DNA of 64,000 bases from Gammaproteobacteria bacterium (GCA_965203725.1 CBDBDH010000002.1:264215-328214), one strand, 5' to 3'; numbered from the stretch's first letter, positions 13,143 to 49,248 are shown. Notes: generated from the letters alone by a model not told the origin. Translations and numbers: made by a program.

Positions 13143-13143
13143 G

Positions 13144-14010: not shown

Positions 14011-14044
14011 GGTATCGAGAGGTCAGCGTATCCCCACAGGGTCA

Positions 14045-16819: not shown

Positions 16820-16931
16820 ACTGCATGTATAAAATCAGATTGATACATGCAATATACAGCAAGGCCACGAAATACTCCCTCCCGTTGCGGGAAGGCATAC
16901 ACCGGTGCACTGACCAGGGGCAAATAAAGAT

Positions 16932-24161: not shown

Positions 24162-24262
24162 CGCAGCTCCTGGGTTATCGTTCTGGTTATTCCGGGCAGG
24201 TCATGGGCAACCGGCAGGGACAATCCTAAAGGATTTGCACGCTGCCTGACAATTTTGAATTT

Positions 24263-25945: not shown

Positions 25946-26131
25946 GCCGGTTACCTGCTATTTGCCGCCACCTGGGGAGGATGGCATCAAAAGAAGTCCT
26001 GCCACGCTGGTGCGATCCGTGTGGCATTTTCGGCTTTTTATAGCGGTTACGCGTGCGGAATGCAAAGTTTTGCGCACGCATCCGGGCGCCAGTCGACCCA
26101 TCCCGGGAGGTATCGGTGACCGGGGCTGGCC

Positions 26132-28886: not shown

Positions 28887-28904
28887 TGCGGTGCTTGTCT
28901 GTAT

Positions 28905-29933
28905 CTATTTCCACCCGGCGCGGTCCATGACCATCACCGCGCTTGCATTGAGTTCGCCGAGCCGATGGAGGTTCAGGGAGTCCGCCTTGAATTGGCCCCA
29001 GCTTTCGAGCATCTTGCTGGCCCGTATGCCGGGCTTTACCGGGTACTCGAAATTGGTTTTTGCATACCACTGCTGTGCATCATCGCTTGCAAGGAATTCC
29101 AGGAGCCTGATGGCGGATGTCCTGTTTTTCGAGTATTTGGTCACCGCACCGCCACTGATATTGACATGCACCCCGCGCCCCTCCTGGTTGGGCCAGAATA
29201 TTTTTACTTTTTCAGCGGCCTCGCGCTGTGCAGGATCCTTGGAAGCGAGCATTTTGCCGAGGTAATAGCTGTTGGCCACCGCAAGGTCGCATTGTCCTGC
29301 AGCCACGGCCCGGATCTGGTCGCGGTCCCCTCCTTGCGGGGGCCGGGCAAAATTCCCGACCAGGCCCTGGGACCAAGCCAGGGTGTCCTGCTCTCCCAGG
29401 TGTGCGAGCAGGGAGGCGACCAGCGACTGGTTGTAGATGTTGTTCGAGGAGCGAATACAGATTTTCTTTTGCCAATGCGGGTCGCCCAGGGCCTCGTAGG
29501 TCGACAGTTCTTCGGGCTGGACGCGGTCACCGGCATACATGATCGGGCGGGTCCTCAGGGAAAGTGCAAACCAGTATCCCTCGGGCTCACGGTACTGTTC
29601 GGGTATGGAGTCTCTGAGAATCTTCGAGTCCACCGGCTGCAGTACCTGGGCCTGCTGGGCACGGTACAAACGACCCGCATCCACAGTGATCAGGATATCG
29701 GCGGGGGAGTGTTCGCCTTCACTGACGATGCGCTGCAGCAGGGCATCCGCCTTGCCCGTGATCAGGTTGACCCGGGTGTCCGTGCGATTTGCAAACTCGC
29801 TCAGCAGGGGCTTGATCAGGTTTTCTTTCCTGGCGGAGTACACGTTTACCTCCGCAGCGCCGAGCAACGAAGCGGATAGACACAGGCAGACGCCAAGCGC
29901 AAACTGCATGCTGGACAAGCTTCGGATTTTCAT
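28905..29933 (-). CDS. Fe(3+) ABC transporter periplasmic substrate-binding protein (FbpA/AfuA-like)
   Basis: The start is placed at the ATG complementary to 29931-29933, giving a clean signal peptide MKIRSLSSMQFALGVCLCLSASLLGAAEV. The mature part is an SBP family-1 ferric-binding fold. Confidence 0.75.
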   Translation of the reverse strand: MKIRSLSSMQFALGVCLCLSASLLGAAEVNVYSARKENLIKPLLSEFANRTDTRVNLITGKADALLQRIVSEGEHSPADILITVDAGRLYRAQQAQVLQPVDSKILRDSIPEQYREPEGYWFALSLRTRPIMYAGDRVQPEELSTYEALGDPHWQKKICIRSSNNIYNQSLVASLLAHLGEQDTLAWSQGLVGNFARPPQGGDRDQIRAVAAGQCDLAVANSYYLGKMLASKDPAQREAAEKVKIFWPNQEGRGVHVNISGGAVTKYSKNRTSAIRLLEFLASDDAQQWYAKTNFEYPVKPGIRASKMLESWGQFKADSLNLHRLGELNASAVMVMDRAGWK

Positions 29934-30079
29934 GGGGAGCCCTTTTCGAAGTTGGGAAACGTGGCACAAGTATACAATTATAATAGCTATTCTCATTAGC
30001 ATTTAGAATACCTTCATTTCACAGGCACGTGATCGCGCACCACTTTTTTCGCTGAGACTTTCGTATATATTTTGCAGCC

Positions 30080-33977: not shown

Positions 33978-35396
33978 ATGAACCTGGACAATCTTGCAAA
34001 GGCCAAGATCCTGGTCATCGGGGATGTCATGCTGGACCAGTACTGGCTGGGCGAGACCAGCCGCATATCCCCCGAAGCCCCGGTCCCGGTCATCAATATC
34101 GAAGACATGGAAAACCGGTTGGGCGGTGCGGCCAATGTCGCAGCCAACGCCATCAGCGTGGGAGCCGACGTGACCCTGATCGGAATGGTCGGGCGCGATG
34201 AAAACGGCGACCGGCTGCTGGAGTTGCTGGATGCCACGAACATCCATACAAAAGTCATTCGCAAGGAGGACTACAGGACTTCCACCAAACTGCGCGTCGT
34301 CAGCCGTAACCAGCAACTGCTCAGGCTGGACCATGAAGACAGCCGCAAGGAGGCCGACAACACCGAGGTCCTGGAAGTGTGCGAACAGCAGATTTCCGGG
34401 CACGGAACCATCGTGATCTCGGATTATGACAAGGGGGCAGTGGCAGGAATTGAGCACATTATCGAAGCCGTACGCAAGGCCGGCAAGCGGATCATCGTAG
34501 ATCCGAAAGGGGCCTGCTTCGACAAGTACAAGAATGCAAGCATCATCACCCCGAACTACCAGGAGTTCATACAGGTTGCCGGTGAATGCACGGATGAGGA
34601 AGAGCTTGAGAACAAGGCACTCGGGATGTGCAGGGAACTGGACCTTGATGCCTTGCTGGTCACGCGAAGTGAACATGGCATGTCCTTGTTCATGCAAGGC
34701 CAGCCTGCCAGGCATTTCCCTACGCAGGCCAGGGAGGTCTACGATGTCACAGGAGCCGGAGATACCGTAGTGGGCCTGTTTGCCTCGGCGGTATCCGCCG
34801 ATTATCCAATTGCAGATGCGGTGAAAATCGCGAACCTGGGAGCGGGGATTGCGGTGAGCAAGCTGGGCACCGTGGCCGTGACGACTGAGGAGCTGGATTT
34901 CAGTTTGCAGGTCGCGGCCAGCAGAGGGAAACGGGTCGCTGACCTGGATGAATTGAAGCGGGTCGTGGCCGCGCTGAGGCGCAATAATGAAAAAGTCGTG
35001 TTCACCAACGGGTGTTTTGATCTGATCCACCGCGGCCATATCGCTTGCCTGCGCGATGCCAAGTCCAGGGGTGACTGCCTGATCGTGGCCATCAATGACG
35101 ATACTTCGGTAAGAAGCATCAAGGGGGACAGTCGTCCCGTGTGCAGTCTGCAAAACCGCATCGAGGTGCTTGAGGAGCTGAACTGCATTGACTGGCTCAT
35201 ACCGTTCTCCGAAGACACGCCCTTGACGCTGATCGAGGAACTGAAGCCCGATGTTTACGTCAAGGGTGGCGATTATGAAAAGGAGAAGCTGGCCGAATAC
35301 GAACTGGTCAGCAGCTACGGAGGGGAAGTTGTCATCTCGCCCTACGTGGAAGGCTGCTCGACCACCTCGATCATTGATTCCATTCAGAGCGCTTGA
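33978..35396 (+). CDS. hldE: Bifunctional D-beta-D-heptose 7-phosphate kinase / D-beta-D-heptose 1-phosphate adenylyltransferase
   Basis: 472 aa. An N-terminal PfkB-type kinase and a C-terminal cytidylyltransferase (FTNGCFDLIHRGH) give the HldE/RfaE architecture. The last approximately 15 codons lie within the island-border repeat. Confidence 0.95.
   Translation: MNLDNLAKAKILVIGDVMLDQYWLGETSRISPEAPVPVINIEDMENRLGGAANVAANAISVGADVTLIGMVGRDENGDRLLELLDATNIHTKVIRKEDYRTSTKLRVVSRNQQLLRLDHEDSRKEADNTEVLEVCEQQISGHGTIVISDYDKGAVAGIEHIIEAVRKAGKRIIVDPKGACFDKYKNASIITPNYQEFIQVAGECTDEEELENKALGMCRELDLDALLVTRSEHGMSLFMQGQPARHFPTQAREVYDVTGAGDTVVGLFASAVSADYPIADAVKIANLGAGIAVSKLGTVAVTTEELDFSLQVAASRGKRVADLDELKRVVAALRRNNEKVVFTNGCFDLIHRGHIACLRDAKSRGDCLIVAINDDTSVRSIKGDSRPVCSLQNRIEVLEELNCIDWLIPFSEDTPLTLIEELKPDVYVKGGDYEKEKLAEYELVSSYGGEVVISPYVEGCSTTSIIDSIQSA
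35343..35396. repeat. Left copy of an approximately 54-bp imperfect direct repeat (att-like) comprising the hldE 3' end
   Basis: CGTGGAAGGCTGCTCGACCACCTCGATCATTGATTCCATTCAGAGCGCTTGACT here and CGTGGAAGGTCGCTCGACAACCTCGATCATTGATTCCATTCAGAGTGCCTGACT at 41449-41503 differ at about 5 positions. Both copies encode ...VEGxSTTSIIDSIQSA*. Confidence 0.65.
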
Positions 35397-35445
35397 CTGC
35401 GAACTAGGCGGGCGGGAGTTCGAATCTTTCCGGGCGTGCCATTTT
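35397..35445 (+). other. tRNA 3'-end-like fragment (T-arm GGGAGTTCGAATCTTTCC plus acceptor ...GTGCCA); not a complete tRNA
   Basis: GGTTCGAATC-type T-loop and a terminal CCA are read in the sequence. No D-arm or anticodon arm precedes it (hldE coding sequence lies there). Probably an element-borne att remnant. Confidence 0.35.
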
Positions 35446-35720
35446 TTGTGACTCACGCTTGCTCTGGGGCTGAGGCTGTCCAATAGTATCGGGTTTACCT
35501 GTTTTTTTCTCAGGGGTGAGTTGCACCCGCACCGGCTTGCGCCGGTATATCCGCTGGGTGATCATGGTGTCCGCACGACCGAGGCGTTTCGAGGCTTCGA
35601 CCAAGCTGTTCGATTCGCTCGTGACTTTGACTTCAATCGTCTGCAGTAAATTGATGAGCTCTGGCTTCCTGAATCGCTTGCGTAGGGCGATCCCCCTGAC
35701 CCAACTTAGCAGAGTTTAGA
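35404..35720 (-). pseudogene. Tyrosine recombinase (phage integrase) C-terminal fragment
   Basis: Minus-strand translation ...LGQGIALRKRFRKPELINLLQTIEVKVTSESNSLVEASKRLGRADTMITQRIYRRKP... matches the R-H-R-Y integrase C-terminus (LGHxxxxxTxRYxH box). There is no N-terminal 250 aa; an unrelated AT-rich gene occupies that space. Confidence 0.5.
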
Positions 35721-35825
35721 CTATAATCTGGAGTGAGTTTAGGGCAGGACACTCAAACCGATAAGAAATATACATAGACTTTAAACAAAGTCAAAGTGCA
35801 CAAAAATATTCTTTTTAAAAGATAT

Positions 35826-35855
35826 TTGGCACTGTAATGGTTAGGTTCTTATAAT
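35826..35855 (+). promoter_or_regulatory. Sigma70-like promoter candidate (TTGGCA, 18-nt spacer, TATAAT) upstream of the island cargo operon
   Basis: Hexamers read directly in the sequence, about 55 nt upstream of the ATG at 35911. Confidence 0.35.
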
Positions 35856-35910
35856 TTGTCTCTTTATTTATAAAGAATACACTCAGGGATACTAAACACG
35901 GGGAAATATC

Positions 35911-36474
35911 ATGACTGATAAAAACCAAGATGCATGTTTATCAGCATTCAATTCAATTATATCTATTCTTTCTGATTTTAATAATGAAGATAAAAAGCAC
36001 GTTTTAGGTTCTGTTATTAACTGGCTAAAAATTTCTGATATAGGTTCCGGTTTAGGAAATGCTAAAGAGTCACCACTACAATCGAGTCCTTCAAGGGCAA
36101 TAGCAAATATTTCACTTGAATCAGATGTGTCCCCAAAGGACTTTCTATTAGAGAAACTCCCTGGATCGAACGTTGAGCGTGTTGCTTGTTTGGCATACTA
36201 TCTTACTCATTACAGAGATACCCCTCACTTCAAGACAACCGACATCAATAAATTAAATACCGAAGCTGCGCAACCAAAGTTCTCTAATCCAGCTGTTGCT
36301 GTGAATGATTCGTCAAAAGCAAGATTATTGGTTGCAAGCGGCAAAGGGAATAAGCAATTGAGTGCAATGGGAGAACAGTTTGTTCTGGCACTACCAAATC
36401 GCGATCAAGCTAAATCGATTCTGAACAAAATGAGACCAAAACGTAAAGCAAAAAAAAGAGCAAAAAGACAATAA
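35911..36474 (+). CDS. Hypothetical protein with strongly basic C-terminal tail (KMRPKRKAKKRAKRQ)
   Basis: 187-aa ORF with a start-proximal GGGGAAA ribosome-binding site, AT-rich codon usage unlike the host core, and no recognisable domain. First gene of a three-gene co-oriented cassette. Confidence 0.5.
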   Translation: MTDKNQDACLSAFNSIISILSDFNNEDKKHVLGSVINWLKISDIGSGLGNAKESPLQSSPSRAIANISLESDVSPKDFLLEKLPGSNVERVACLAYYLTHYRDTPHFKTTDINKLNTEAAQPKFSNPAVAVNDSSKARLLVASGKGNKQLSAMGEQFVLALPNRDQAKSILNKMRPKRKAKKRAKRQ

Positions 36475-36502
36475 AGATAAATTGATAAATTGTTCTGGAA
36501 AA

Positions 36503-37498
36503 ATGGCTGGGCGACATAAAGCAATTCGGATTTCTATTTTCAACCATAAAGGTGGTGTAGGTAAGACAACTCTTACGGTTAATTTAGCTGCAGCTTTGGC
36601 AGAAGCAGGGAAAAAAGTTCTATTAATTGATTCGGACCCACAATGCAATATTACTCAATACTTGTTTGATGACTCTACAATTGATGGTTTGTTGGAAAAA
36701 TCTGATGAAAGTGATGGAGAGACAATCTGGTCAGCAGTTAAGCCGGTTGTAGAAGGTGAGGGGAGAATATCAGACGTAGGTGTATACGAAACTGCCGTTT
36801 CTAATTTATATATCCTTCCTGGTGATATTCAGTTATCAGAATTTGAAATTGAACTCTCTAATTATTGGACAGCATGTATTAAAGGCCAAAGGAGAGGATT
36901 TAAGGAAATTTCTACCCTAAGTCATCTCGCGAATATGTATGCTAAAAATGATGATATTGATTTTATATTTTTTGATACAGGACCAAATATTGGCCCATTA
37001 AACCGTATAATTTTATTGGATTGTGACTATTTTTTAGTTCCAGGAGCATGTGATCTTTTTTCGGTTAGAGCATTAAGAACTTTAGGTTCTTCAATGACGA
37101 AATGGATTAAAGAATGGGCTGAAATCTCAAAAAAATCAACAGGCGACATTAATATTCCACCTGGCTGCCCTAAATTTCTTGGGTATATACCCCAAGGATT
37201 TAGGGTCTATGGACAAGGCATGGCAAGGTGGCCTTCTAAATATCATGCAAGGTTTCGAAAAGAACTCCAAAAATACTTACTGACACCACTAAGGCGAATA
37301 TCTTCAGATCTAATTAGGACATCCGGGTCTGAGTCGAAACTAGGAGAAATAAAAGATTTTGCGCATTTAGTTCAAAAATCACAAGAACAGCGTGTGCCAC
37401 TATGGCTTGTTGCTGGTGGGCCGGTGTATCAAACCGAAGAAGCGCATGATGCTTTTTCTAAGATGGCTGATGAACTAATCACTCGAACAGAGGAATAG
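36503..37498 (+). CDS. ParA/MinD-family P-loop ATPase with long C-terminal extension
   Basis: Deviant Walker A IRISIFNHKGGVGKTTLTVNLAAALAEAGKKVLLIDSDPQCN. ATG at 36503; 331 aa, about 80-100 aa longer than canonical ParA. Confidence 0.8.
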   Translation: MAGRHKAIRISIFNHKGGVGKTTLTVNLAAALAEAGKKVLLIDSDPQCNITQYLFDDSTIDGLLEKSDESDGETIWSAVKPVVEGEGRISDVGVYETAVSNLYILPGDIQLSEFEIELSNYWTACIKGQRRGFKEISTLSHLANMYAKNDDIDFIFFDTGPNIGPLNRIILLDCDYFLVPGACDLFSVRALRTLGSSMTKWIKEWAEISKKSTGDINIPPGCPKFLGYIPQGFRVYGQGMARWPSKYHARFRKELQKYLLTPLRRISSDLIRTSGSESKLGEIKDFAHLVQKSQEQRVPLWLVAGGPVYQTEEAHDAFSKMADELITRTEE

Positions 37499-37504
37499 TA
37501 AATA

Positions 37505-38215
37505 GTGGCCAGAATTACTGAGAGCCGCCATCGTGAGATCGACAAAGCAGTATCAAAATATGAAAGCATACGCACAGACTTTGATAATCTAGGTGAAACC
37601 ACTAACAGATTACTAGTTAGTGATGCACGACTAAAGCATTATATTCACTCTAGTAAATATAGAACAAAAGATCCCAAAAGATTAAAAGAAAAAATCATAA
37701 GAAAAACAAGTGATCGATTAAAGTTGCCAAAAGATGAGAGAGCCCCATTAATAACTGCTAGAAATCTTCTGGAGACTGTGGAAGATCTAGCTGGAATTCG
37801 ACTCCTTCATTTGCATACGCAACAAATGTCAAATATACATCCAGTAATAGTCGAAATACTTGAAGGAAATCGCTATCAAATTATCGATAGGCCAGTCGTA
37901 TATATATGGGATACTGAGAACAGAGAGTTCTTCAAAGGTATTGGCATAAAACCAATCGAACGCCTAGATAAAGAAATGTATACAAGTGTTCATTATGTTG
38001 TTAGTTCACCTCAACGACCAGAAATGAGAATTGAAATACAGGTGCGAACACTGATGGAAGAAGTTTGGGGAGAAGTATCTCACATTATAAATTACCCTCA
38101 GAAAACTGAAATTACAGCCTGCCGTGAGCAACTTAGCGCCCTTGCAAGATTTACTTCTGGGTGCAGTCGTTTGGTTGACTCAATTTTTGCCACTAAAGCT
38201 GAAAGTGAAAAATAA
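37505..38215 (+). CDS. RelA/SpoT-domain nucleotidyltransferase (small-alarmone-synthetase-like, single domain)
   Basis: DLAGIRLLHLHTQQ (DxxGxRxx), SVHYVVSSP (G/S-x-x-S/H-x-H) and EIQVRTLMEEVWGEVSH (EIQIRT...WAE..H) are the synthetase-fold signature motifs. 236 aa; begins 6 nt after the ParA-like gene. Confidence 0.75.
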   Translation: MARITESRHREIDKAVSKYESIRTDFDNLGETTNRLLVSDARLKHYIHSSKYRTKDPKRLKEKIIRKTSDRLKLPKDERAPLITARNLLETVEDLAGIRLLHLHTQQMSNIHPVIVEILEGNRYQIIDRPVVYIWDTENREFFKGIGIKPIERLDKEMYTSVHYVVSSPQRPEMRIEIQVRTLMEEVWGEVSHIINYPQKTEITACREQLSALARFTSGCSRLVDSIFATKAESEK

Positions 38216-38258
38216 TTTTTAGAAAGGTCTGATCAATTTAGTTGCTGAGAGGCGATTT

Positions 38259-38513
38259 CTACAGATCATGGATTTCAAGCCAGTCTAGAAGATCAAAAGG
38301 CCTGGAATCCGTGGCCTGTGCCGGGTAAATGCGGATCAATGCAGGCGATGGCACATCCCTCCAATTTTTCAAGTGCACGCCCCCACCAGTTCCTTCTAGG
38401 GAAATGATCCGCCCCATGTCTTCCTGGAACGCTTCCTTGCGGGTCTTCTTGCTGTACTGGTCGAATCTGGTATCAGAAAAGGCTGGCGGACGTATGGGAT
38501 AAATCTCTATCAT
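38259..38513 (-). CDS. Hypothetical small protein (84 aa); has a degraded paralogue at about 42000-42145
   Basis: ORF on the opposite strand between the SAS-like and macro genes. Its 3' end and downstream approximately 70 bp are repeated, diverged, next to the XRE gene at 42145. Confidence 0.3.
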   Translation of the reverse strand: MIEIYPIRPPAFSDTRFDQYSKKTRKEAFQEDMGRIISLEGTGGGVHLKNWRDVPSPALIRIYPAQATDSRPFDLLDWLEIHDL

Positions 38514-38599
38514 TGAATCCTTGACAGAGATTATGATTCTTGTGGGTTAATTAATCAGAGGTTCCTTAAAATTGAAGCTCAATCAAGCTGGTATTTCTA

Positions 38600-39058
38600 A
38601 TGATCACGTTTACCCAAGGTAATCTGCTTGAAGCCGATGTTGAGGCAGCAGTGAACACCGTGAACACTGTTGGCATCATGGGAAAAGGTATTGCCCTGAT
38701 GTTCAAGGAGCGGTTTCCGCAGAATTTTGAAGCCTACGCACATGCTTGTGAGGACAAGGAGGTGCGTATCGGGAAAATGTTTGTTAGTGAGAACAGAGAG
38801 TTTTTCGGTCCGAAGTGGATAGTCAATTTTCCAACTAAAACGCACTGGCGAGCAAATACACAGCTTGAATGGATAGAAAAAGGTCTTCAAGACCTCATCT
38901 GGGTCATCAAGGAAAAGAATATCCGTTCGATTGCAATCCCGCCTCTTGGTTGTGGCAATGGTGGCCTCAATTGGGATGACGTTCGGCCTCTTGTCGTTGC
39001 AGCTTTAGAGAAAGTTGAGGGCCTTGAGGCAGTGGTTTATGAGCCTACTGCCAAATAA
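38600..39058 (+). CDS. Macro-domain protein (ADP-ribose / O-acetyl-ADP-ribose hydrolase family)
   Basis: [39 protein letters not shown] and [18 protein letters not shown] correspond to the macrodomain N-x(6)-GGGVA and AFPxISTGxYG motifs; 152 aa. Confidence 0.8.
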
Positions 39059-39380
39059 CAGGATGTCGCGAAACGTACCAGTGTAGAAAAGTTTACGCCG
39101 GCCCAAGCTCTCATGGTAGCGTCCATCAACAAGACCGCCCTCCCGTTGCGCGGGCGTGGGCTGTTTCGAAAAGGATGACGCGTTACAGTCACTCAATCGA
39201 GGAGAACTAGGAGCATCAGCCGGAAACGATACTCAGGCGTCGCCACGCCCCGAGTCTTTGATCGCGGAGATTGGTGAGGATGGCCTTTTTCGTGGCGAAG
39301 CAGAGCAGTTCCCAAGGATATATCAGCAGATCGCTGAAGTTAGCATTTGACTGTACACTCTTGATTTATTTCACCAATAG

Positions 39381-40502
39381 GTGTACTTTCATCAAATGGT
39401 GAAAGTACCTGAAACAGAGAAACAGGTAGAGGGTGCGATGGTGGACGCGGTGCGTGCCCTCCTTGAGCATGTCCCGAACACACAGATCATTGGCGTTCGC
39501 CACGCGCTGCATCTCAAGGCCGACTACCGGCTCGATGCCAGGATCGATATAGATCACGATGGAAATCGCTATGCGCTCCTCATGGAGATCAAGTCAGATG
39601 GAGCGCCGCGCTTTGCCCGTTCCGCGGTCTATCAGCTCGAGAGCTACATCGCGCATTTGCATCGATCCGAACACCAGGACGACACCGGGCAGTTCATTCC
39701 GATGCTGGTGAGCCCCTATTTGTCTCCGGTGTCGCGCTCCATCTGCCTCGATCACAATGTCGCCTACCTCGACTTCTACGGTAACGCCCAGCTTGCTTTC
39801 GGCTCCGTCTATATCGAGCGGTCCGTACCGGACAGACCGAAGTCTGAAATCCGCACCCAGCGGTCATTGTTCACTCCAAGGGCGGGCGCAATCCTGCGAG
39901 TTCTCCTGCGCGACCCGACCCGCGCATGGCGCGTCACGGACTTGGCTGAGGCAGCCAACTCCAGTCTCGGGCACGTAAGCAATGTCCGCCAAGCACTGCT
40001 CAACCGGGAATGGATCGAAATACGAGACGACGGTCTCGTCCTTGTCCAGCCGGATGCGCTGCTGAAGTCTTGGCGCGAAAACTACCGTCAACCCGCCGGT
40101 CGTCACGTCAGCGGATACACAAGCCTGCACGGGGACCAGCTGCGCAATCGCCTGTCGGGAAGCCTGAACCCGGGACCGCAACCCCCGCGTGCAATCTGCG
40201 CATTAAACTCGGCTGCCCAGTGGATTGCGCCATACGTCCGAGGCGGCACGCAGAGCTTTTACGCAGACGAACCCGGGGTGCAGATGCTGCAAGAAACGCT
40301 GCAACTGACTCATGCCGCCCAAGGTGCCAACGTGATCCTTCGCATCCTCAAGGATGAAACCCTGTTTGAAGACGCCGTCCAGCCGGTGCCGGGCATCTAC
40401 TGCGCAAATCCGGTAGTCACCTACCTCGATCTGTGGAATAGCAACGATCGGGGTCGAGAGGCTGCCGACCATCTGGCCACGAAGTGTTTTTCATGGTTGT
40501 GA
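39381..40502 (+). CDS. Putative wHTH-containing partner or regulator of the DUF1814 nucleotidyltransferase (AbiEi-like?)
   Basis: High-GC ORF overlapping the downstream gene by 19 nt. The internal segment RVLLRDPTRAWRVTDLAEAANSSLGHVSNVRQAL looks like a winged helix. Start uncertain (GTG 39381, ATG 39396 or ATG 39438). Confidence 0.4.
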   Translation: MYFHQMVKVPETEKQVEGAMVDAVRALLEHVPNTQIIGVRHALHLKADYRLDARIDIDHDGNRYALLMEIKSDGAPRFARSAVYQLESYIAHLHRSEHQDDTGQFIPMLVSPYLSPVSRSICLDHNVAYLDFYGNAQLAFGSVYIERSVPDRPKSEIRTQRSLFTPRAGAILRVLLRDPTRAWRVTDLAEAANSSLGHVSNVRQALLNREWIEIRDDGLVLVQPDALLKSWRENYRQPAGRHVSGYTSLHGDQLRNRLSGSLNPGPQPPRAICALNSAAQWIAPYVRGGTQSFYADEPGVQMLQETLQLTHAAQGANVILRILKDETLFEDAVQPVPGIYCANPVVTYLDLWNSNDRGREAADHLATKCFSWL

Positions 40503-41350
40503 GGGAACTCCAGGCCGCTGGTGAGTACGATGACCGGACGACAGCCGCGGTCAAGTCCGTACTCATCGAGATCGGCCAGATTCTTGGCAGCTTCAAAGGC
40601 AAGTTTGCGATCATCGGCGGCGCTGTTCCCTGGCTGTTGCTGGGCGAAGCCGAGATGCAGCACGTCGGCACCGTCGATGTCGACCTCGGCCTCGATCCGG
40701 CTGCTTTGGGCGATAGTGAATACGCTCGGCTCGTCGAAGCCCTCCGGGAACACGGCTACCTTCAACGAGACAATTTGCGGCGCTTTCAGTTGGTACGGAC
40801 TGTCCCGGCCAGTGATGGCGGGCCCGACATTGACGTCGTCGTCGATTTCTTGATGCCGCGCGATGCCGAGATTACAAGGAATACGCCGCCGCTGATCAGC
40901 GAATTTGCCGTCCAGCGTGCGGACGGCGCAGACCTGGCGCTCAACTTCTATCAAATGGTCGCTATCGAGGGACACATGCCGGACGGTGCCCAAAATCGCG
41001 TCAACATCGCGGTGGCATCGATCCCAGCCCTTCTCGCTATGAAAGGTTACGCCATCGCCAACCGTCTGAAACGCAAGGATGCCTACGACATCTACTTCTC
41101 CGTGAGGAACTTCCCGGAGGGAATTGATGCCCTCGTCGAAGCAACCCGGCCACTTCTCGATGTCGAGTCGGCCCTCCAGGGGTACCGCTCTATCGGTGAC
41201 AAGTTTCGGAATGTCGAAGATTTCGGACCGTCGAGCGTGAGAACGTTCGTTGAGGGTTCCGACCTGCTTGGCGACCGTACGGCAGACCAATGGCAGCAGG
41301 ATGCCTTTGGACAGGTCGACGCCTGGCTCAGGGGCCTGGGACTGAAATAG
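40484..41350 (+). CDS. Nucleotidyltransferase of the DUF1814 / AbiEii-AbiGii toxin family
   Basis: FAIIGGAVPWLLLGEAEMQHVGTVDVDLG matches the hGG...D-x-D minimal nucleotidyltransferase motif of DUF1814 proteins; 288 aa. Confidence 0.65.
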   Translation: MFFMVVRELQAAGEYDDRTTAAVKSVLIEIGQILGSFKGKFAIIGGAVPWLLLGEAEMQHVGTVDVDLGLDPAALGDSEYARLVEALREHGYLQRDNLRRFQLVRTVPASDGGPDIDVVVDFLMPRDAEITRNTPPLISEFAVQRADGADLALNFYQMVAIEGHMPDGAQNRVNIAVASIPALLAMKGYAIANRLKRKDAYDIYFSVRNFPEGIDALVEATRPLLDVESALQGYRSIGDKFRNVEDFGPSSVRTFVEGSDLLGDRTADQWQQDAFGQVDAWLRGLGLK

Positions 41351-41448
41351 TCATGACCGGAACCTCGAATGCCAGAATCCGTACAGTGGGCATGCCGACC
41401 CGCGAGACGGGGTGATGGTGGTGGTGCTCCCAACAGTTGCTGCTCCTA

Positions 41449-41503
41449 CCTGCGTGGAAGGTCGCTCGACAACCTCGATCATTGATTCCATTCAGAGTGC
41501 CTG
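41449..41503. repeat. Right copy of the approximately 54-bp direct repeat (displaced original hldE 3' end / att site)
   Basis: See the left copy. Here the sequence is non-coding in context yet retains the hldE C-terminal reading frame up to TGA. Confidence 0.65.
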
Positions 41504-41536
41504 ACTTCAGCAGTGACACCTGTTCAGGCTTGCCTC

Positions 41537-41647
41537 CTAGCGGTCGATGTAACGGCGGTACGTGCGCGCGCATACACCCAGCAGCCGCGCCGTCGCCTGG
41601 CTGAGGCGGCGTTGCGTCCAACCCTCATACGCTTCCTCAAACCTCAT
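41537..41647 (-). pseudogene. IS-element transposase N-terminal HTH fragment (36 codons then stop)
   Basis: The minus-strand translation is MRFEEAYEGWTQRRLSQATAARLLGVCARTYRRYIDR followed by a stop. This is the typical N-terminal HTH of an IS transposase; nothing further follows. Confidence 0.35.
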
Positions 41648-41815
41648 TCTCCGGATCTCCTGTACCACGCTGTCCGTCTCATCGGGTACCGCCTTAGAGG
41701 CCCCATGAAAACCGGACAGATCATGTGCTCCCTACAGTGATTTAGTCCTAGCGTTCAAATTTGCCCGCAGAGAGGGTATTTTGGTATGCCTGAATCATCT
41801 TGGGCATGGTGTAAA

Positions 41816-41836
41816 ACGTGAACTACAAGTTCACGT
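41816..41836. promoter_or_regulatory. Perfect palindrome ACGTGAACT-ACA-AGTTCACGT
   Basis: Read in the sequence. Shares the half-site AGTTCAC with the palindrome at 42617-42630; both flank the XRE-HTH gene. Confidence 0.3.
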
Positions 41837-42144
41837 CGATGGTTTCATCCCATACAACCCAGCATGAGACAGGATGCAGCAGCCTATGGCCTACACGTTT
41901 ACTGAGCGGTAAGCCCGTAAGCTTTATCCAGAGTTCACTGTGGGGGTGGCCCGATGAATGAGGCCCATCGGATCCCAAACCATCAAGGGAGGTCTGATTT
42001 AGTTTCCGAGAGGTGATTTCTGCAGATCATGGAGTTCAGCCGGTCCAGAGGATCAATAAGAATGCTGTCGGCGGCCATCGCTCTCAAAATGCAGCTGACC
42101 GACAATACGCTTTGCCTGCCCAAGTGCGACGATGGCTTCAGGCA

Positions 42145-42534
42145 TCAGAAGCCGACTCCTTCATCGTCCACGCTAGCACTTTTTGAATCGCTTCGGCGAT
42201 TGGGTGCGAGTTGATCAGGTATCTTTCTCCGCTTAGTTCCAATTCGCTTGGGTAACAGGTTGCGCTCCAGCAGTAATGCCGTATCGTCCGAGGCGGGATC
42301 AAGCAGGTCGCCGATACGGTCGATTTCTCCAAGAACCAGGCATGCCATCGCCAGGGTTCCCGTACTGACACCGTCATCGCCTTTTTCAAGGCGCGTGATC
42401 GTACGGGCTGACACACCAACACGGTCGGCAAAATCCTGGACAGCAATCCTGCGCTTCAATCGTGCTGTTTTCAGGTTCTCAGCCATCTGGCGCAATGCTA
42501 TTTGTGCACGTTTGGATTTTATTTTGTCTGACAT
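42145..42534 (-). CDS. XRE-family helix-turn-helix transcriptional regulator (antitoxin-like)
   Basis: RAQIALRQMAENLKTARLKRRIAVQDFADRVGVSARTITRLEKGD is a Cro/C1-type HTH. Its stop overlaps (ATGA) a short degraded downstream ORF. Confidence 0.7.
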   Translation of the reverse strand: MSDKIKSKRAQIALRQMAENLKTARLKRRIAVQDFADRVGVSARTITRLEKGDDGVSTGTLAMACLVLGEIDRIGDLLDPASDDTALLLERNLLPKRIGTKRRKIPDQLAPNRRSDSKSASVDDEGVGF

Positions 42535-42616
42535 ATTTGTCTCCTAATAAATTATTATATGACAAATATGTCGGTTATAAAGAAAATGTTAAATATTTCT
42601 CTATAAATTTCACTAT

Positions 42617-42630
42617 GGAAGTTCACTTCC
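42617..42630. promoter_or_regulatory. Palindrome GGAAGTTCACTTCC in the AT-rich region upstream of the XRE gene
   Basis: Perfect 14-bp inverted repeat containing the AGTTCAC / GTGAACT half-site. Confidence 0.3.
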
Positions 42631-42877
42631 AAACAAAGGAATCGGTCATGTACAAAGGCAAACGGGTGTTCTCTCGGGTCATGGAGCATGCGCCCCAGCA
42701 TCCCGACTTCCTGTACATCTCCCATGAGTTGAGCAGCACCTGTGCATCAAGTCGTTCTTCGGCACCTCCGGGAATGCCGTGAAGCCCCAGACCTGGGCTG
42801 CGGTGGCCGTCCACGTACTGGCTTTCGCAGTACTGTTGTCGCAGATGGAAGAACCGACAGGGACACGGGGAAAACCA

Positions 42878-42910
42878 CCCAAGAAACTACCCAAGAAACT
42901 ACCCAAGAAA
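42878..42910 (+). repeat. Tandem 12-bp repeat CCCAAGAAACTA, about 2.8 copies
   Basis: Read directly in the sequence. It encodes PKKLPKKLPKKK inside a short, probably spurious ORF (42779..42985). Confidence 0.6.
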
Positions 42911-43058
42911 AAAATTCTTGCTTTATTACGTGAGCATCCTGAGCTTACCCGAAGGGCCCGAAATCCAAGATTGCTTACTCTCTGAATGAGAAATCTTCTA
43001 AGATAGGTGGCAATATCTCAGATATAGCGTGAGATTAAATGCCGAAAAAGTCGGATAA

Positions 43059-43071
43059 GTGACATTGTCAC
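43059..43071. promoter_or_regulatory. Palindrome GTGACA-T-TGTCAC upstream of the DUF433 gene
   Basis: 6-bp perfect arms, about 140 nt upstream of the ATG at 43210; candidate operator. Confidence 0.25.
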
Positions 43072-43209
43072 AAGCAAGCTTAATATTCGTGGGGCAGCAA
43101 CTGAGCTACTGGAATCGAGACCGATTGTAGCCGAAGATGGACGCGAGAGCGTCCAAACCAAGTTCAATCCACGATTTTCCAGCAACATGTTGGGAAAGGA
43201 GGAAAACTT

Positions 43210-43437
43210 ATGACGAACTGGACAGACTGTCCTGCGGTGGAACGTAATCCCCGCAAGATCAGTGGCGACTGGGCCTTCGCGGGAACCCGGGTGCCGGTAT
43301 ATGCCCTTTTCGAGAACATCGAGAGCGGCGCCACTGTCAAGGAGTTTCTTGAATGGTACCCCGAGGTGAAGGCGTGGCAGGTTGCCGCTGTCCTCAAACA
43401 CGAAGCTGAATCCCTCAAGACGTTCGCCGAGGCGTGA
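43210..43437 (+). CDS. DUF433-family protein (putative antitoxin)
   Basis: AAAGGAGGA ribosome-binding site. ISGDWAFAGTRVPVYALFENIESGATVKEFLEWYPEV is the DUF433 core. The stop overlaps the GTG of the next ORF. Confidence 0.7.
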   Translation: MTNWTDCPAVERNPRKISGDWAFAGTRVPVYALFENIESGATVKEFLEWYPEVKAWQVAAVLKHEAESLKTFAEA

Positions 43438-43751
43438 AAATCCTGTTTGACCACGGGACGCCAGCGCCCCTTAGGCGACACCTCGAAGGACATATCGTGG
43501 ACCGTTCCGCAGAGAAGGGATGGGAGTTGCTAGAGAATGGAGAACTGATCCGCGGGGCTGAAGAAGACGGCTATGAAATCATCGTCACCACGGACCAGAA
43601 CATGCGGCACTAGCAAAACCTGGCCAGTAGCAAGTTGGCAATCATCGTGCTGATGGCCACGGCATGGCCACGCGTGCAGCATCGAACGAAAGAGGTCCTT
43701 GAGGCCATCGAGGAAGTGCGTCCGGGCGAGGTTCGGGAAGTCCCGATCTGA
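43434..43751 (+). pseudogene. DUF5615 (PIN-like, Mut7-C type) partner gene interrupted by an in-frame TAG at 43611-43613
   Basis: MKILFDHGTPAPLRRHLEGHIVDRSAEKGWELLENGELIRGAEEDGYEIIVTTDQNMRH is followed by a TAG stop. The frame then continues in the family-typical way (...KLAIIVLMATAWP...) to TGA at 43749-43751. Confidence 0.5.
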
Positions 43752-44108
43752 TTGCATGCCTGTCTGTGTCATGTGACTCACGGATGGGGTGGTCCATATG
43801 CCCGGATGAAATAGCCAAATGCGATACGCGTTGAAGCTAAGTAGTCCTTTTAGAAATCTTGGCAATAATAACCTCGTGAAAACACCTTAGAGATCAGATC
43901 AACGCTATGAAAGTTTGCTAGGTTATCTTGAGACGCAGTTCATGCATTGACCTATTGTCAGATACTGGCTTATGCCACTGTTCTGCAACATGTGTAAGTA
44001 AGGCTTGCAATCCTCGGGAACATTCTCCGTAGCATGCAGTCATAACTATAGGCAAAACAGGCAGTTCCCTACCTGCTCGGGGCTTGCTGGAAGGAAGGTT
44101 TTGCTCCC

Positions 44109-44130
44109 GATAGCTATAACTATCGGGATT
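44109..44130. repeat. Hairpin CCCGATAG-CTATAA-CTATCGGG (first of two related hairpins; the second is at 44611-44632)
   Basis: Both are embedded in the similar context CTCCCGATA...TATCG(G/C)G about 500 bp apart; further GC-rich palindromes (GGGCTGCCATCGCAGCCC) lie between them. Confidence 0.4.
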
Positions 44131-44774
44131 AAATTTGTAAAGCGGAATCGTTTTTCCGGCAGGGCTGCCATCGCAGCCCGCAGCCACTTCATGCCTGTTC
44201 AATGATAACTCCCTGAATCCATGGAAGTAAAATGGGGCAAATCCGCTCACGCTGGGGCAGGCAGGCGTCCAGCAGCCTGACCGGTCTGCGCGATTTTTAC
44301 TCCTGATAACATCATGCGGTCCCGGCTGCAGTTCCTCCCGGAATGTATGCACAGAAAACCCCTGGGCACGCACATGCATGCATGCCCGCCCGATCCACTC
44401 GGCCAACTGCGGCGATCCACTACGCTCAGGTCATCGACGTTGTCTCCGGCTCATCTCCTGTGCTGCAGTTCGGCCAGTTGGGCCGCCCCGCTTCTTTTGG
44501 CCAGCAGCTGCTCCCCCCAACGTCCTTCAGGCAGCTGGCCAAACGCACGCCCAGCCCCGCATCGGGCGAGGTGCATGCGAGGACCTCCACATCACTGATA
44601 CAAGCCCCGGAAGTTTACTCCCGATATTTATAGTTATCGCGAATAAAAAAGGATAATTCATGTACCACATTTTTGGGGACCCGGATTTGTCGTTATTACA
44701 TCCTGAAACTTGGGTATTCCAAATTAAGATCGCGATCGGGGTAATCACCCGCCGCCCCAAGATCTAGGAGGCGC

Positions 44775-47700
44775 ATGATACCCGTCTCGCCCGGATCGGA
44801 CTCTAGGCAATCACCTCCCTTGCCATCTCTACAGGCTCGTGCATTTTCCAGGCGGGCGGCTCTCTCGTGTGCAATGCTTTTGATGAGTAATCTGTACGCA
44901 GGGTATGCCCATGCGGCCGACGTATGCCATAACTCGCCAGCGCAAGGGGACAGGATCGTATGTACAAAAGAGGGGGACACATCGACCGGTAATATCGACA
45001 TTGACGTCGTCGGCCTCGACATCGATACGACGGCGGATGAGGGGAGTCAAGGGACCAACGACGGCGGACATGGGGTAATTCTTAAACACGAAGGCAGCGG
45101 GAACATTGAACTCGATATCGCCGGAACCACCACAGGAGGCACCACGACGCCGTCGACCATTGACACGACGGGCGACAGTGCTGTGGGCATTGTGCTTTGG
45201 CATGTGGATTTACAGTCCAGCAATGGCCGGTCAGGAAACATCACCGCTACACTGTCAGACACCGAAATCAATACATCAGGCGCTGGCAGCACTGGTGCAC
45301 AAGGGATCTGGGCCCGCAACTCGGGCAATGGCCATGTGACTCTAAACCTGAATCCAGGTGTCACGATTGGTACGGGTGGAAGTAATGCGACTGGCGTGTA
45401 CCTGGTATCGGATAATGCCGTGGCAAACCAAAATAACGATGTGATCCTCAACGCTCGAGGGATCACTATCACGACACAAGGAGGTGGAACCTTATCTAAC
45501 ACGATCTGGGCCGAGCGGATAGTTGGACCAGGAGATGTCCGCCTGGACATCAGGGACAGCACGCTTAGCACGACAGGCGATTTCCTGTATGGAATCCGTG
45601 CCAACAACAGTGGTGGCCAAAATAGCGTTGGTGATGTCGACATTGACCTTGTGGGTGGACGCATCACGACAGGGGGCTACCTTGCCCATGGCATCTATGC
45701 GCATCGCCAGAATGACAACAGCCTTTCGGGTACCCCTTCCGGCAATATCGAGATCACGTCCCGAAACCACACCATCGAGACGACCGGCACAGCCCATCAT
45801 GCGGGCCTACAGGGCACTTACTCATACGGCATACTCGCGGCTCACGAAAGCGACGGCAACACTGTCATCGACCTGGGGGAAGGATCCTCCGTGATTACGC
45901 ACGGCAAGAACTCTCACGGCATCGTGACCTACCACTACGGTACAGAAAACACCCGGAGCATGGACGTTACCGTCAGCGGTACGATCACCGTGAATGGTGA
46001 AGCCGCACAGGGCGTCCGTGTAGGAACAATCAGAGGCGGTGCCCTTGAGCGTATGGCTGCACTGGACAGTGAAGGTTACCGCCGGCACACGGTGACGGTG
46101 AACGGACCAATCACGAGTACCGGTGAAGGCGTGTATCTGGTCAACGGCGGGCGGGTGATCATCGGACCACAGGGCAGCATCAGTTCCGGTTCGGGAATCG
46201 CGATCCTCGCAACGGGCACCGTGCCAGAGGACAACACCGACCCACAGAATATTATCCCGGCTATACCGCCGAAGCTGCGGGTCGACCTGAACCTGGGGGG
46301 TCGACGGGTGTCGGAGGCGATTGGCGATGACTGGATTCTCAACGATGGCGGTGAAACCACGCTGGCCGTGAACAGTATCGTGCTGCACGACGGTGCGACC
46401 GGCAATACTGGCAACACGGCAAGAAACGGCGTCTGGGATGTAACCCTGGCTAGTCCGGGTGTATCGGTCACCGACCGCACCACGGACCCGTGGACCACGG
46501 CTGCATCCACTGCGCCTGCGGACCGTGACTTTCGGGCGGCAGATTTCAATGAGGTCGAAGCCAATTGCCCCACCGGCCAGATCGGCACACCACCGAATTG
46601 CAGAACGCCCCCACCTCCTACACCACGTCGGCCTCCTCCTGAACCTGAACCCGAGCCCCAGGTGCATCAGGTGAATGAAGCGATATCCGCTGGGACGGAT
46701 GCCCCGGCAGGTGTGGTGGTCCAGGGGGACGGCGAGGTATACATCGGGGCGCAGGGCCGCATCGAGGCGGCCTCCGGCATCGCCATCCTGGCCACCGGAG
46801 ACGACCCGGACCTGCTGGTGGACATCGACCTCGATGGCCGTCAGGTCCGCGAGGTGATCGGGGATGACTGGATTATCAATGACGGCGGCGGCACCACCCT
46901 CGTGATCAATGACGTGAAGCTGCACGACGGGGAAGCTGGCGTAGTTCCGGAAGCCTCGGCCCCGAACGGCGTATTTAATGTGCGGGTCCTGGCCGAAGGC
47001 GTACAGGTGCTGGACCGTACAGACCCGGATCCTGCAAACTGGAACGTGAGTCTGCGGCAAGCTGGCGTTGTTGCCGACCGGGACTTTGCCTCGGCGGACT
47101 TTGTCGAGACCCGGGAGGAGCCCGAGCCCCAGCCCCCGATGCTCATTGAGGAGTACGCCCCGCGGGCAGCCCTTTATGAAGCGCTGCCCGAGTTCCTGCT
47201 GGGCCTGCAAACGAGAACACCGGGAGGTGCGTACCGGGTTCTGCTGAAGCCGCCGAGGTGGATTGAGTTGCGGGGCAGTTCCGGGTCGCAGGACTTTGAT
47301 CGTTCGACCGTGGGCGCGAAGTACGATGCGGAGCATCTGGCCGTGGAAGCGGGCGGGACGGTACTGGAAAGTGAGCACTGGAATGTCGGTGCCTCGCTGC
47401 ACCACGTCACGGGCTCTGCGGACGTGTCATCGCCGGTCAGGGGCGGGGACATCCGTGTGAAGGGCGTGGGCCTCTCGTTCGATGCCCACCGGCACAGTGG
47501 GCACGGCCACTATACCGCCGCCCGTGTTTCATGGACGAACTACTACGACCTGGACATCTCCTCGGACACGGTGGGACGGCTCATCTCGGAGGTGGATGCC
47601 GACTCCCTGGCCCTGAATGTGGAGGCCGGGCGGCGGATACGCCAGGGAGAGGACCGCACCTGGTACACACCGCATGTTTGGCTGGGCTACACGAGAGTAT

Positions 47701-48047
47701 CGGTCGACAGTTTCATGGATGCCGTGAAGGCCCGGGCATCATTTCCGGATGCCGATCGCTACACCGCAGGACTTGGGCTGATGGCGGAGACGGTGAAAGA
47801 CACGTCTAGCGGTGAGCTGGCCCTGATGGCATCGCTGGACATCGAGCACAAGTTCGGGGGAGCGGACACCTCCTCCAAGGTCTCAGGGGAGAGGCTGAGC
47901 GCCGAACCGCAGGAGAACAGTGCTTCGCTAGCCCTGGGGAGCGCCTGGCGGCAGGGCCCCTGGTCGATCGATGCCGTGATTTCCACCCGCGAAGGATCGG
48001 GGGACGACGGCTATTCGGGTTCCTTCAATCTCGGCATGCGCTTCTAG
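44775..48047 (+). CDS. Autotransporter (type Va secretion) with a repetitive passenger domain and C-terminal beta-barrel translocator
   Basis: TAGGAGG ribosome-binding site and a long signal peptide. A Gly/Thr-rich beta-helix-like passenger carries two approximately 130-aa tandem repeats and a PPPPTPRRPPPEPEPEP linker. The C-terminal approximately 280 aa end in ...FNLGMRF (terminal aromatic). Confidence 0.8.
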   Translation: MIPVSPGSDSRQSPPLPSLQARAFSRRAALSCAMLLMSNLYAGYAHAADVCHNSPAQGDRIVCTKEGDTSTGNIDIDVVGLDIDTTADEGSQGTNDGGHGVILKHEGSGNIELDIAGTTTGGTTTPSTIDTTGDSAVGIVLWHVDLQSSNGRSGNITATLSDTEINTSGAGSTGAQGIWARNSGNGHVTLNLNPGVTIGTGGSNATGVYLVSDNAVANQNNDVILNARGITITTQGGGTLSNTIWAERIVGPGDVRLDIRDSTLSTTGDFLYGIRANNSGGQNSVGDVDIDLVGGRITTGGYLAHGIYAHRQNDNSLSGTPSGNIEITSRNHTIETTGTAHHAGLQGTYSYGILAAHESDGNTVIDLGEGSSVITHGKNSHGIVTYHYGTENTRSMDVTVSGTITVNGEAAQGVRVGTIRGGALERMAALDSEGYRRHTVTVNGPITSTGEGVYLVNGGRVIIGPQGSISSGSGIAILATGTVPEDNTDPQNIIPAIPPKLRVDLNLGGRRVSEAIGDDWILNDGGETTLAVNSIVLHDGATGNTGNTARNGVWDVTLASPGVSVTDRTTDPWTTAASTAPADRDFRAADFNEVEANCPTGQIGTPPNCRTPPPPTPRRPPPEPEPEPQVHQVNEAISAGTDAPAGVVVQGDGEVYIGAQGRIEAASGIAILATGDDPDLLVDIDLDGRQVREVIGDDWIINDGGGTTLVINDVKLHDGEAGVVPEASAPNGVFNVRVLAEGVQVLDRTDPDPANWNVSLRQAGVVADRDFASADFVETREEPEPQPPMLIEEYAPRAALYEALPEFLLGLQTRTPGGAYRVLLKPPRWIELRGSSGSQDFDRSTVGAKYDAEHLAVEAGGTVLESEHWNVGASLHHVTGSADVSSPVRGGDIRVKGVGLSFDAHRHSGHGHYTAARVSWTNYYDLDISSDTVGRLISEVDADSLALNVEAGRRIRQGEDRTWYTPHVWLGYTRVSVDSFMDAVKARASFPDADRYTAGLGLMAETVKDTSSGELALMASLDIEHKFGGADTSSKVSGERLSAEPQENSASLALGSAWRQGPWSIDAVISTREGSGDDGYSGSFNLGMRF

Positions 48048-48271
48048 GGGTCCACTGGCTGAATAAAGATTCGAATCTATAGTTCTTGCTCTCATGTTAC
48101 ATGCCCTCGCCCTGAGCGGGTGCCCCGAGTTCTATAGCGAACGTGAACTGGCTTTGACAAGAAGATTGGCATAACCAAGTGCAGTTGTCGCACGAGGTAA
48201 TGCTGAATTCAATTGTTCCCTTTATTTTCTCTATTGGTGAGTTGGCCTGAGAAAATCTGCAGGACTTTGAA

Positions 48272-49141: not shown

Positions 49142-49248
49142 TCTAGGGAGGCCTTGCGGGTGCGTTATAATGACTCGGCAGGTTTGGGGAAGTGCGCCCC
49201 GAATTTTACAATCCCACCTATGTGAGATCAAAGGATACCGACTTCGTC

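Follow-up and report, generated by a model that had tools for sequence, protein, structure and literature searches.

A composite island of 12.9 kb was found directly downstream of hldE, the gene of the bifunctional heptose kinase/adenylyltransferase, in a 64,000-nt stretch of DNA from a Gammaproteobacteria bacterium (GCA_965203725.1 CBDBDH010000002.1:264215-328214), which is referred to here in its whole length as the window, with positions counted from its first letter. The reading favoured here, with moderate confidence, is that the island is immobilised at a hotspot between hldE and a lipopolysaccharide (LPS) kinase gene, that its founder was an element of the tRNA-Arg type, and that a 58-bp direct repeat of the hldE 3' end is the scar of a later single crossover. 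An insertion hotspot of an uncultured gammaproteobacterial lineage would accordingly lie in the spacer that separates hldE from the convergent LPS-kinase gene, and the island, which extends from 35385/35397 to 48259, would have been built by several serial events.

In the founding event, a tyrosine-integrase element of the tRNA-Arg type would have recombined at the hldE stop codon rather than at a tRNA-Arg gene. It would have left an attL-like junction on the left side, with hldE in place of the tRNA 5' part, and this junction would read rightward as ...GAG(C/T)GC(C/T)TGA, the anticodon loop, the tRNA-Arg 3' half, CCA, and an integrase gene on the opposite strand. Later, a module of ~6.1 kb would have entered by a Campbell-type single crossover within the last 58 bp of hldE, bringing its own diverged hldE-end/stub junction, the integrase, an AT-rich cassette, a macro-domain gene and AbiE genes. 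Possibly this module was a circle related to the resident element, and its integrase or RecA carried out the recombination. Its entry would have regenerated hldE with repeat copy 1 and moved the prior hldE end (copy 2, of the type present in the related loci L001 and L118) 6.1 kb downstream, and subsequent deletions would have removed most of the integrase, the DNA that followed copy 2, and 378 codons of a 408-codon hipA gene. Nothing in the island appears able to move by itself now, the integrase being reduced to a decayed remnant, and the initial annotation of this DNA had likewise considered the island probably immobilised.

The hldE junction: repeat, tRNA-Arg stub and integrase remnant

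The hldE gene (33978..35396, plus strand; Pfam PfkB and CTP_transf_like) is intact and encodes 472 aa, the length found in at least 30 homologues. A 54-bp repeat had been placed initially at 35343-35396, with its left copy encoding the functional hldE end. The repeat is real, and its copy 1 does close the intact, full-length gene; the quoted 54-mer, however, lies 2 nt further right, at 35345-35398. Alignment of the two copies, which had been proposed as a check, gave a longer, gap-free imperfect direct repeat of 58 bp (35341-35398 against 41449-41506) with 52/58 identical positions. Copy 1 (35341..35398, plus strand) comprises the last 18 hldE codons, the stop and 2 nt. Both copies are read in the same frame as ...VEG(C/R)STTSIIDSIQSA*, with stops at 35394-35396 and 41502-41504, and the second copy, which reads ...VEGRSTTSIIDSIQSA*, thus keeps the hldE frame and stop, as had been stated. 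Similarity to HldE ends after 16 codons in copy 2 (41449..41506, plus strand; alignment and tblastn), which is therefore an orphan hldE 3' end. A chance origin of the repeat is excluded: the expectation was ~4e-16 in the window (binomial probability of at least 52 matches in 58, multiplied by all placements in the window), and shuffled sequence gave zero matches of repeat quality.

Copy 2 departs from the hldE-wide consensus at three private positions of the repeat (4, 14 and 15), and its last 43 positions are consensus; its last 18 nt (CAGAGTGCCTGACT) match the hldE end of L001 at 18/18 and that of L118 at 17/18 positions. Private substitutions of copy 1, relative to L118, lie at positions 23 and 50. 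Because the changes of copy 2 sit on the left and those of copy 1 on the right, a host site reconstructed from the left part of copy 1 and the right part of copy 2 is nearly identical to the L118 hldE end (57/58), and an incoming site reconstructed from the left part of copy 2 and the right part of copy 1 carries all five private changes. This pattern lends modest support to one crossover between repeat positions 16 and 22, with copy 1 as putative attL and copy 2 as putative attR.

Immediately after the hldE stop codon begins a tRNA-Arg 3' stub (35397..35441, plus strand), identified by ungapped comparison with tRNA-Arg genes and with attachment (att) sites in IMG/VR contigs; the tRNA-3'-like stub noted initially beside the left repeat was confirmed by these indirect tests. 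It contains, in order, the anticodon loop (CTGCGAA in the window, CTACGAA in L117), the 3' strand of the anticodon stem, the variable loop, the T-arm, the 3' strand of the acceptor stem, the discriminator and CCA, and the 30-mer across the hldE stop and the anticodon loop is GAGYGCYTGACTNCGAACYAGG. Window positions 35383-35441, which correspond to the tRNA from the 3' strand of the D-stem on, matched real tRNA-Arg genes at 47/59 positions without gaps, against 3/18 for the preceding 18 nt. Since this alignment starts before the stop, the tRNA likeness extends into the last hldE codons (from ~35386). The TGA stop occupies the place of the 5' strand of the anticodon stem, and the sequence upstream of tRNA position ~19 is hldE; a tRNA-Arg gene was not regenerated intact. 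No tRNA gene was called in the window (ARAGORN, Rfam), no second stub copy was found in it, and the stub region gave no RNA-structure signal above shuffles. The stub junction is common to the window and the related loci L117, L118 and L002, and the better preserved stub of L002 reaches 17 bits on the Rfam tRNA model. The T-arm/acceptor pattern was also found in 99 stretches of IMG/VR contigs. Whole tRNAs at these loci were tRNA-Arg (ACG/TCG) in four of five checked and tRNA-Met in one (L070), and in many contigs the tRNA sequence starts no earlier than the anticodon loop, the usual att form of tRNA-targeting integrases. One of the contigs (L029) carries two stubs 5.9 kb apart. Directly after the stub CCA, L117 and L118 have in common 76 bp (11467-11542; TTTAAGCTTGTTGGATCAAGCGGTTAGAC...) that are missing from the window and that hold a motif resembling one which many viral attP-like sites carry ~20-30 nt to the left of their anticodon loop.

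On the minus strand next to the stub lies the decayed C-terminus of a tyrosine integrase (35521..35706, ~62 aa; tblastn against viral-contig ORFs and alignment), the only such remnant in the window; the C-terminal integrase fragment suspected initially was confirmed by its homology to stub-adjacent viral integrases. The remnant matches the C-termini of ORFs of 320-360 aa beside tRNA-Arg stubs in viral contigs with 35-44% identity (best E = 9e-5, tblastn against a 0.85-Mb database of viral stub loci). These ORFs adjoin the stub on the opposite strand, in the same layout as in the window, and all three that were scanned scored above the Pfam Phage_integrase cut-off. In many prophage-like contigs among the IMG/VR loci L018-L116, a member of this integrase family with the C-terminal end ...LGHxxxxTTxRxYRRKPxxVxPLR stands beside a 45-nt tRNA-Arg att stub; L097 and L064 are examples of viral contigs with an intact member. 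The remnant keeps the catalytic Tyr motif LGRADTMITQRIYRRKP within the conserved pattern LGxxxxxxTxRxYRRKP. Its HxxR box has been lost (HDLR replaced by QTIEVK), everything N-terminal of ~residue 260 is gone, and it ends at the drop in GC content at ~35700. Its identity came only from comparison with the ORFs beside the same stub in viral contigs; direct searches with a 96-103-aa minus-strand reading returned nothing from Pfam, PHROGs, PDB, plasmid tblastn or a set of 5.8 billion proteins. No such remnant was found at the L001, L002, L003 and L014 loci, and the 368-aa ORF beside the stub of L002, considered as a candidate integrase, shows no similarity to the window remnant.

The homologies of stub and remnant assign both, as a predicted pair, to the type of element that targets tRNA-Arg, and not to a demonstrated element specific for hldE; the initial annotation had seen here the footprint of an element that targets a gene 3' end. 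The native hldE end (for example TTGAGTGCCTGA) resembles tRNA-Arg positions ~20-31 (TAGAGTG(C/T)CTGG), a likeness that suggests use of this end by the element as a pseudo-attachment site. The searchable literature yielded no report in which hldE serves as attachment site, and exact-protein look-ups of the window hldE, of the 187-aa protein of the AT-rich cassette and of the macro-domain protein gave nothing on record.

Empty and occupied sites in relatives

A scan of one genome per species, together with look-ups of hldE and downstream-kinase homologues, yielded twelve informative loci. Seven are empty sites (L003, L014, L015, L016, L017, L120 and L121) and consist of hldE, a conserved 91-bp spacer and a convergent Kdo/WaaP-type LPS kinase gene. 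Relative to these the window has 12.9 kb of extra DNA (35385-48259): the empty sites join 35384 to 48260, where synteny with them resumes, and the kinase gene (48272-49231, minus strand) forms the right-hand core flank. An eighth island-free locus, L122, has lost the 91-bp spacer as well. In this locus (9584-9613) hldE overlaps the end of the kinase gene and the deletion begins exactly at the hldE stop; it is possibly the scar of a lost island.

Four relatives are occupied, each with different cargo after hldE. L001 (OZ244850.1) carries AbiEi/AbiEii, a DUF4238 gene and genes for unknown proteins; L117 a DUF433-PIN pair and a 302-aa gene; and L118 hipA-hipB, a DUF433 gene and sugar-modification genes. 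L002 carries, on the minus strand at 11651-17326, the 368-aa ORF, judged by eye to consist of pentapeptide repeats, together with an AAA_21 ATPase, an E1(ThiF)-JAB fusion, a prokaryotic E2 and a multiubiquitin protein; ubiquitin-like conjugation sets such as this E1/JAB-E2-multiubiquitin set have been linked to phage defence. In all occupied genomes hldE similarity stops at TGACT, and foreign DNA starts there.

The closest relatives, L117 and L118, are 96.3-96.6% identical to the window over 11.5 kb of left flank. They match it unbroken to 35444 and then jump to window position 42059 onward (L118) or 42635 onward (L117); relative to both, the window has 35445-42055 extra. Because the empty sites lack 35385-48259 and L117 and L118 lack 35445-42055, copy 2 is internal to the 12.9-kb composite island. 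The initial annotation had described an island of ~6 kb, for which the empty-site relatives give 12.9 kb, and had proposed a search for an empty site with hldE joined directly to the sequence after 41503; this was found in no relative. The claim of an insertion thus stands as far as accessory DNA and empty sites in relatives are concerned, and not in its exact extent, as no relative lacks precisely 35399-41506. No related locus examined carries the DNA between the repeat copies, apart from its AbiE cassette, which is also present in L001; the stretch 41507-42055 is unique to the window. No orphan hldE end was found within 10 kb in L001, L002, L117 or L118.

Several observations weigh against the favoured sequence of events. 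The AbiE cassette lies 70 bp left of copy 2 in the window and ~90 bp right of the hldE end in L001, and a simple model needs extra deletions to explain both arrangements. The sequence right of copy 2 has no significant match to the stub, the native 91-bp spacer or L001, and the outer right junction (48048-48262) has no detectable hldE or stub copy, its scores being no higher than those of shuffles; a full attR would need one. An intact integrase is present in none of the five occupied genomes (within 10 kb), and a free or circular form of the element was not found. The hldE-core pattern was unmatched in viral contigs, and the one match in a metagenome contig was the hldE of an unrelated organism. 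A partition of five substitutions like that in the repeat is expected by chance in ~1 of 10 cases. The left-flank phylogeny is star-like and recombining, so that one ancient event and recurrent insertion are not separable. Finally, the hldE terminus may be host- or element-derived: the island-free L122 also ends TTG AGT GCC TGA (LSA-type), distant HldE proteins end ILKS, ILNS or ILSA, and the L002 terminus resembles the native one of L120.

The two AbiE arrangements may reflect a deletion in L001, a cassette exchange by recombination or another event. A circular permutation of an AbiE mini-element was also considered and is unsupported, because the comparisons of adjoining flanks were not significant; window 39200-39341 had no significant match to the 90 bp upstream of AbiE in L001, and the right flank of the L001 hldE had none to the native 91-bp spacer or the stub. 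A third hldE-end copy was sought between the macro gene and AbiE, where scores were no better than those of shuffles.

Among the other explanations, the one that survives best, while still unlikely, is homology-facilitated illegitimate recombination of linear DNA from another strain, with neither att site nor circular element. The incoming fragment would have carried upstream core DNA, hldE, the stub, the integrase remnant, cargo and AbiE; its left side would have been anchored by core-gene homology, and its right side joined illegitimately 58 bp before the end of the recipient hldE, copy 2 being the recipient tail. Such an origin is consistent with the missing intact recombinase and second stub, with the abrupt junction with unrelated sequence at the left edge of copy 2, with cargo that varies by strain at one locus, and with the mosaic divergence of the flank, which is typical of frequent homologous exchange. 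Under it, however, copy 2 should be a plain recipient allele, yet its three private changes fall within the first 15 of 58 positions, a pattern that a crossover inside the repeat fits better, and nothing in particular would make copy 2 stop precisely at TGACT, where all islands start. As to the flank itself, positions 24000-30000, compared with L014, L002 and L003, are mosaic, L014 being 19-20% divergent over ~3 kb and 7-8% near hldE, and one kilobase of L002 reaching 22%; these alignments indicate that homologous recombination is frequent in the lineage.

A more far-reaching scheme, which we regard as rather doubtful, holds that the hldE 3' end (...GAGYGCYTGA) mimics the D-stem/anticodon-stem side of tRNA-Arg and serves as a recurrent att site, at which circulating small defence elements with a composite hldE'::tRNA-Arg' attP would stack in tandem in sponge-symbiont-like Gammaproteobacteria. 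If true, a tRNA-targeting integrase lineage would have switched to a protein-coding target, with fossil tRNA sequence still in its att site.

Local rearrangement in an older island, in which a segmental duplication or a mobile-element-mediated deletion/insertion copied the hldE tail together with a second repeat and brought no new DNA, is improbable. This second imperfect direct repeat, D4 (38225-38316 and 41990-42076; core 37/42, ~75% over ~90 nt), is interleaved with the hldE repeat in the same order (copy 1, D4-1, copy 2, D4-2), which resembles a diverged tandem duplication, and several truncated genes surround copy 2. The DNA between the paired markers is nonetheless unrelated, measuring 2.9 kb in one case and 0.55 kb in the other with nothing shared; the repeat copies differ by 10-25%, while the closest strains, which lack all of this DNA, differ by 3.5%; and no transposase was verified (Pfam, NCBIfam, plasmid tblastn). 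The D4 order is also consistent with a tandem of two related units, of which the right-hand one may have been largely deleted. Both D4 copies encode ...(E/L)(I/L)HDLxKSPL(S/G)N* on the minus strand, and they may represent the 3' end of a gene that each of two related units carried.

A 6-kb element specific for hldE, with a dedicated integrase and a replacement terminus, the repeats being attL and attR and the DNA after 41506 the ancestral flank, is very unlikely, and its strict form is contradicted by the aligned loci. The repeat geometry, the preserved frame and the integrase remnant adjoining attL speak for it, as does the difference between occupied hldE termini and those of close empty-site genomes. 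The latter end TCA AAC GCC TGA AT (SNA) or TCA GAT ACC TGA AT (SDT) in the close clade, and occupied sites CAG AGY GCY TGA CT (QSA), TTG AGT GCC TGA CT (LSA) or TTG GGT ACC TGA CT (LGT); native ends are of the forms ...AAACGCCTGAATTTTCATG and ...TTGAGTGCCTGA... The occupied termini look like a replacement but overlap the natural allelic variation of hldE C-termini, and the stop codon, or the position right beside it, is where foreign DNA starts, so the supply of a replacement end by the element, as claimed initially, is not demonstrated. We conclude from the termini only that host DNA gives way to foreign DNA somewhere between 35381 and 35397. The true empty site joins 35384 to 48260, so the DNA after 41506 is not the ancestral flank; the integrase family and the stub are of tRNA-Arg type; the AbiE part is shared with L001 in another arrangement; and the empty site equal to the interval 35399-41506 was seen in no relative. 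Copy 2 was also rejected as the ancestral chromosomal end, as it carries the occupied-site terminus (CAGAGTGCCTGACT), unlike the close-clade empty sites, which end ...TCAAACGCCTGAAT.

That no insertion took place, the 12.9 kb being ancestral and deleted in the empty genomes, is scarcely credible: deletions do occur here, as in L122, but an identical 91-bp spacer is common to seven loci, the outgroup-like L003 among them, and the island has a foreign, mosaic composition, opens with an att stub followed by an integrase remnant, and differs in content in every occupied genome.

Composition and cargo of the island

GC content is 0.33-0.42 at 35.6-38.2 kb, 0.44-0.51 at 38.2-39.4 kb and 0.57-0.63 at 39.4-41.4 kb, compared with 0.55-0.62 in flanking core genes, and this profile agrees with the AT-rich to GC-rich shift from which the island had been called mosaic. 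The AT-rich part is a three-gene cassette (35911..38215, plus strand; Pfam, PHROG, GC 0.33-0.42) coding for an uncharacterised 187-aa protein with a basic C-terminal tail (35911-36474), a ParA-like ATPase (36482-37498; Pfam AAA_31/CbiA, PHROG ParA-like 1e-43) and a RelA/SpoT-domain nucleotidyltransferase (37505-38215; Pfam RelA_SpoT). PADLOC matches to it were weak, and neither PADLOC nor NCBIfam gave a convincing assignment; the cassette might represent a defence or toxin-antitoxin (TA) module not yet described.

It is followed by a gene for a 152-aa macro-domain protein (38600..39058, plus strand; PADLOC, NCBIfam) that corresponds to the N-terminal half of DarG (PADLOC DarG 2.5e-77, profile positions 1-147 of 329; NCBIfam antitoxin_DarG 264.7 bits, above the cut-off, positions 1-150 of 338). 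None of the ORFs upstream of it was DarT-like or matched Pfam. With no DarT and only the macro half of DarG, the locus is not a DarTG system, and the gene is either a truncated darG or one for a stand-alone DarG-type macro protein. The AbiEi/AbiEii cassette (39342..41378, plus strand) contains overlapping AbiEi (39381-40502) and AbiEii (40484-41350) genes, supported by Pfam AbiEi_2 (28.7 bits, cut-off 21) and AbiEii (26.9 bits, cut-off 22.5), and the pair is predicted from its genes to be an AbiE type IV TA system. The cassette is 94.6% identical to L001 11513-13550, with sharp boundaries.

The window-unique stretch right of copy 2 (41507..42055) holds the second D4 copy and a helix-turn-helix (HTH)-like ORF fragment (41540-41740, minus strand). 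The fragment was considered as the N-terminal part of an insertion-sequence transposase and rejected, Pfam HTH_23 giving E = 0.022 only, and NCBIfam and plasmid tblastn nothing. Beyond it lies a hipA stump of the first 30 codons (42056-42145, minus strand; 27/30 identical in tblastn with the full-length L118 HipA); relative to the complete L118 gene (408 aa, 11664-12890), the window hipA is without 378 of 408 codons. The adjoining hipB-like HTH gene (42145-42534, minus strand; Pfam HTH_3, NCBIfam couple_hipB) is intact. A DUF433 antitoxin-like gene (43210-43437, plus strand; Pfam) has orthologues in L117 and L118, and the following DUF5615 PIN-like gene (43434-43750, plus strand; Pfam) has an in-frame TAG, its L117 orthologue being called as 83 aa. 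A 1090-aa autotransporter gene (44775..48047, plus strand; Pfam Autotransporter beta-domain) was found at this locus in the window only, L117 holding its 302-aa gene at that position; it contains an internal diverged repeat of ~95 nt with copies 537 bp apart (46269 and 46806).

Truncation affects the hipA, DarG-like, PIN-like and integrase modules of the island. Defence and TA genes are clustered at one conserved junction with strain-variable content, as expected of defence hotspots, and the gene content points to a typical strain-variable defence/TA hotspot with much decay.

Comparison with known systems

e14 and phage 21 insert in the icd 3' end and duplicate it. Secondary-site and tandem integration is described for SGI1, which targets the trmE 3' end (PMC2297512, PMC8409611). 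The hldE locus is like both in that the target-gene 3' end forms a direct repeat with the target intact (52/58; hldE of 472 aa), in a tandem or composite arrangement with an internal att-like copy. It is unlike them in that no dedicated intact integrase was found and in the 10% divergence of its repeat copies. Nor does it qualify as a gene-3'-end-specific element in the strict sense, since the interval between the repeats corresponds to none of the empty sites.

Composite genomic islands stabilised by HipAB have also been described (PMC8978831). The present locus is like these and like defence islands in that one core-gene junction carries different defence/TA cargo in each strain. Unlike in defence islands, several of its modules in the window are visibly truncated and the hotspot carries a fossil att site, which explains why the locus became a hotspot. 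One off-target landing of a tRNA-specific element beside an essential LPS gene would thus have left an att fossil at which cargo was later stacked and exchanged. For annotation, two cautions follow: an apparent 6-kb island was one module of a 12.9-kb composite, and the last hldE codons and stop overlap tRNA-derived sequence. Its interest is local and concerns the genomics of mobile elements and symbionts; it bears on no open general question.

Genomic islands and prophages in tRNA genes (tDNA) with tyrosine integrases of the P4/lambda type are catalogued in Islander (PMC4383910). As in these, an integrase sequence, here a remnant, abuts a tRNA 3' fragment reaching from the anticodon loop to CCA and is convergent with this stub, the cargo is accessory, and the same stub-plus-integrase layout recurs in dozens of IMG/VR contigs. 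Unlike in tDNA islands, the hldE end replaces the tRNA 5' part, its stop standing in the place of the anticodon stem, a displaced second stub is missing, and the integrase amounts to ~62 decayed codons. The locus is therefore not a strict member of this class, for want of a tRNA gene, a second stub and an intact integrase. By analogy it would work like a tDNA island that landed off target; as a genomic island it is of an ordinary kind, with a junction that is unusual.

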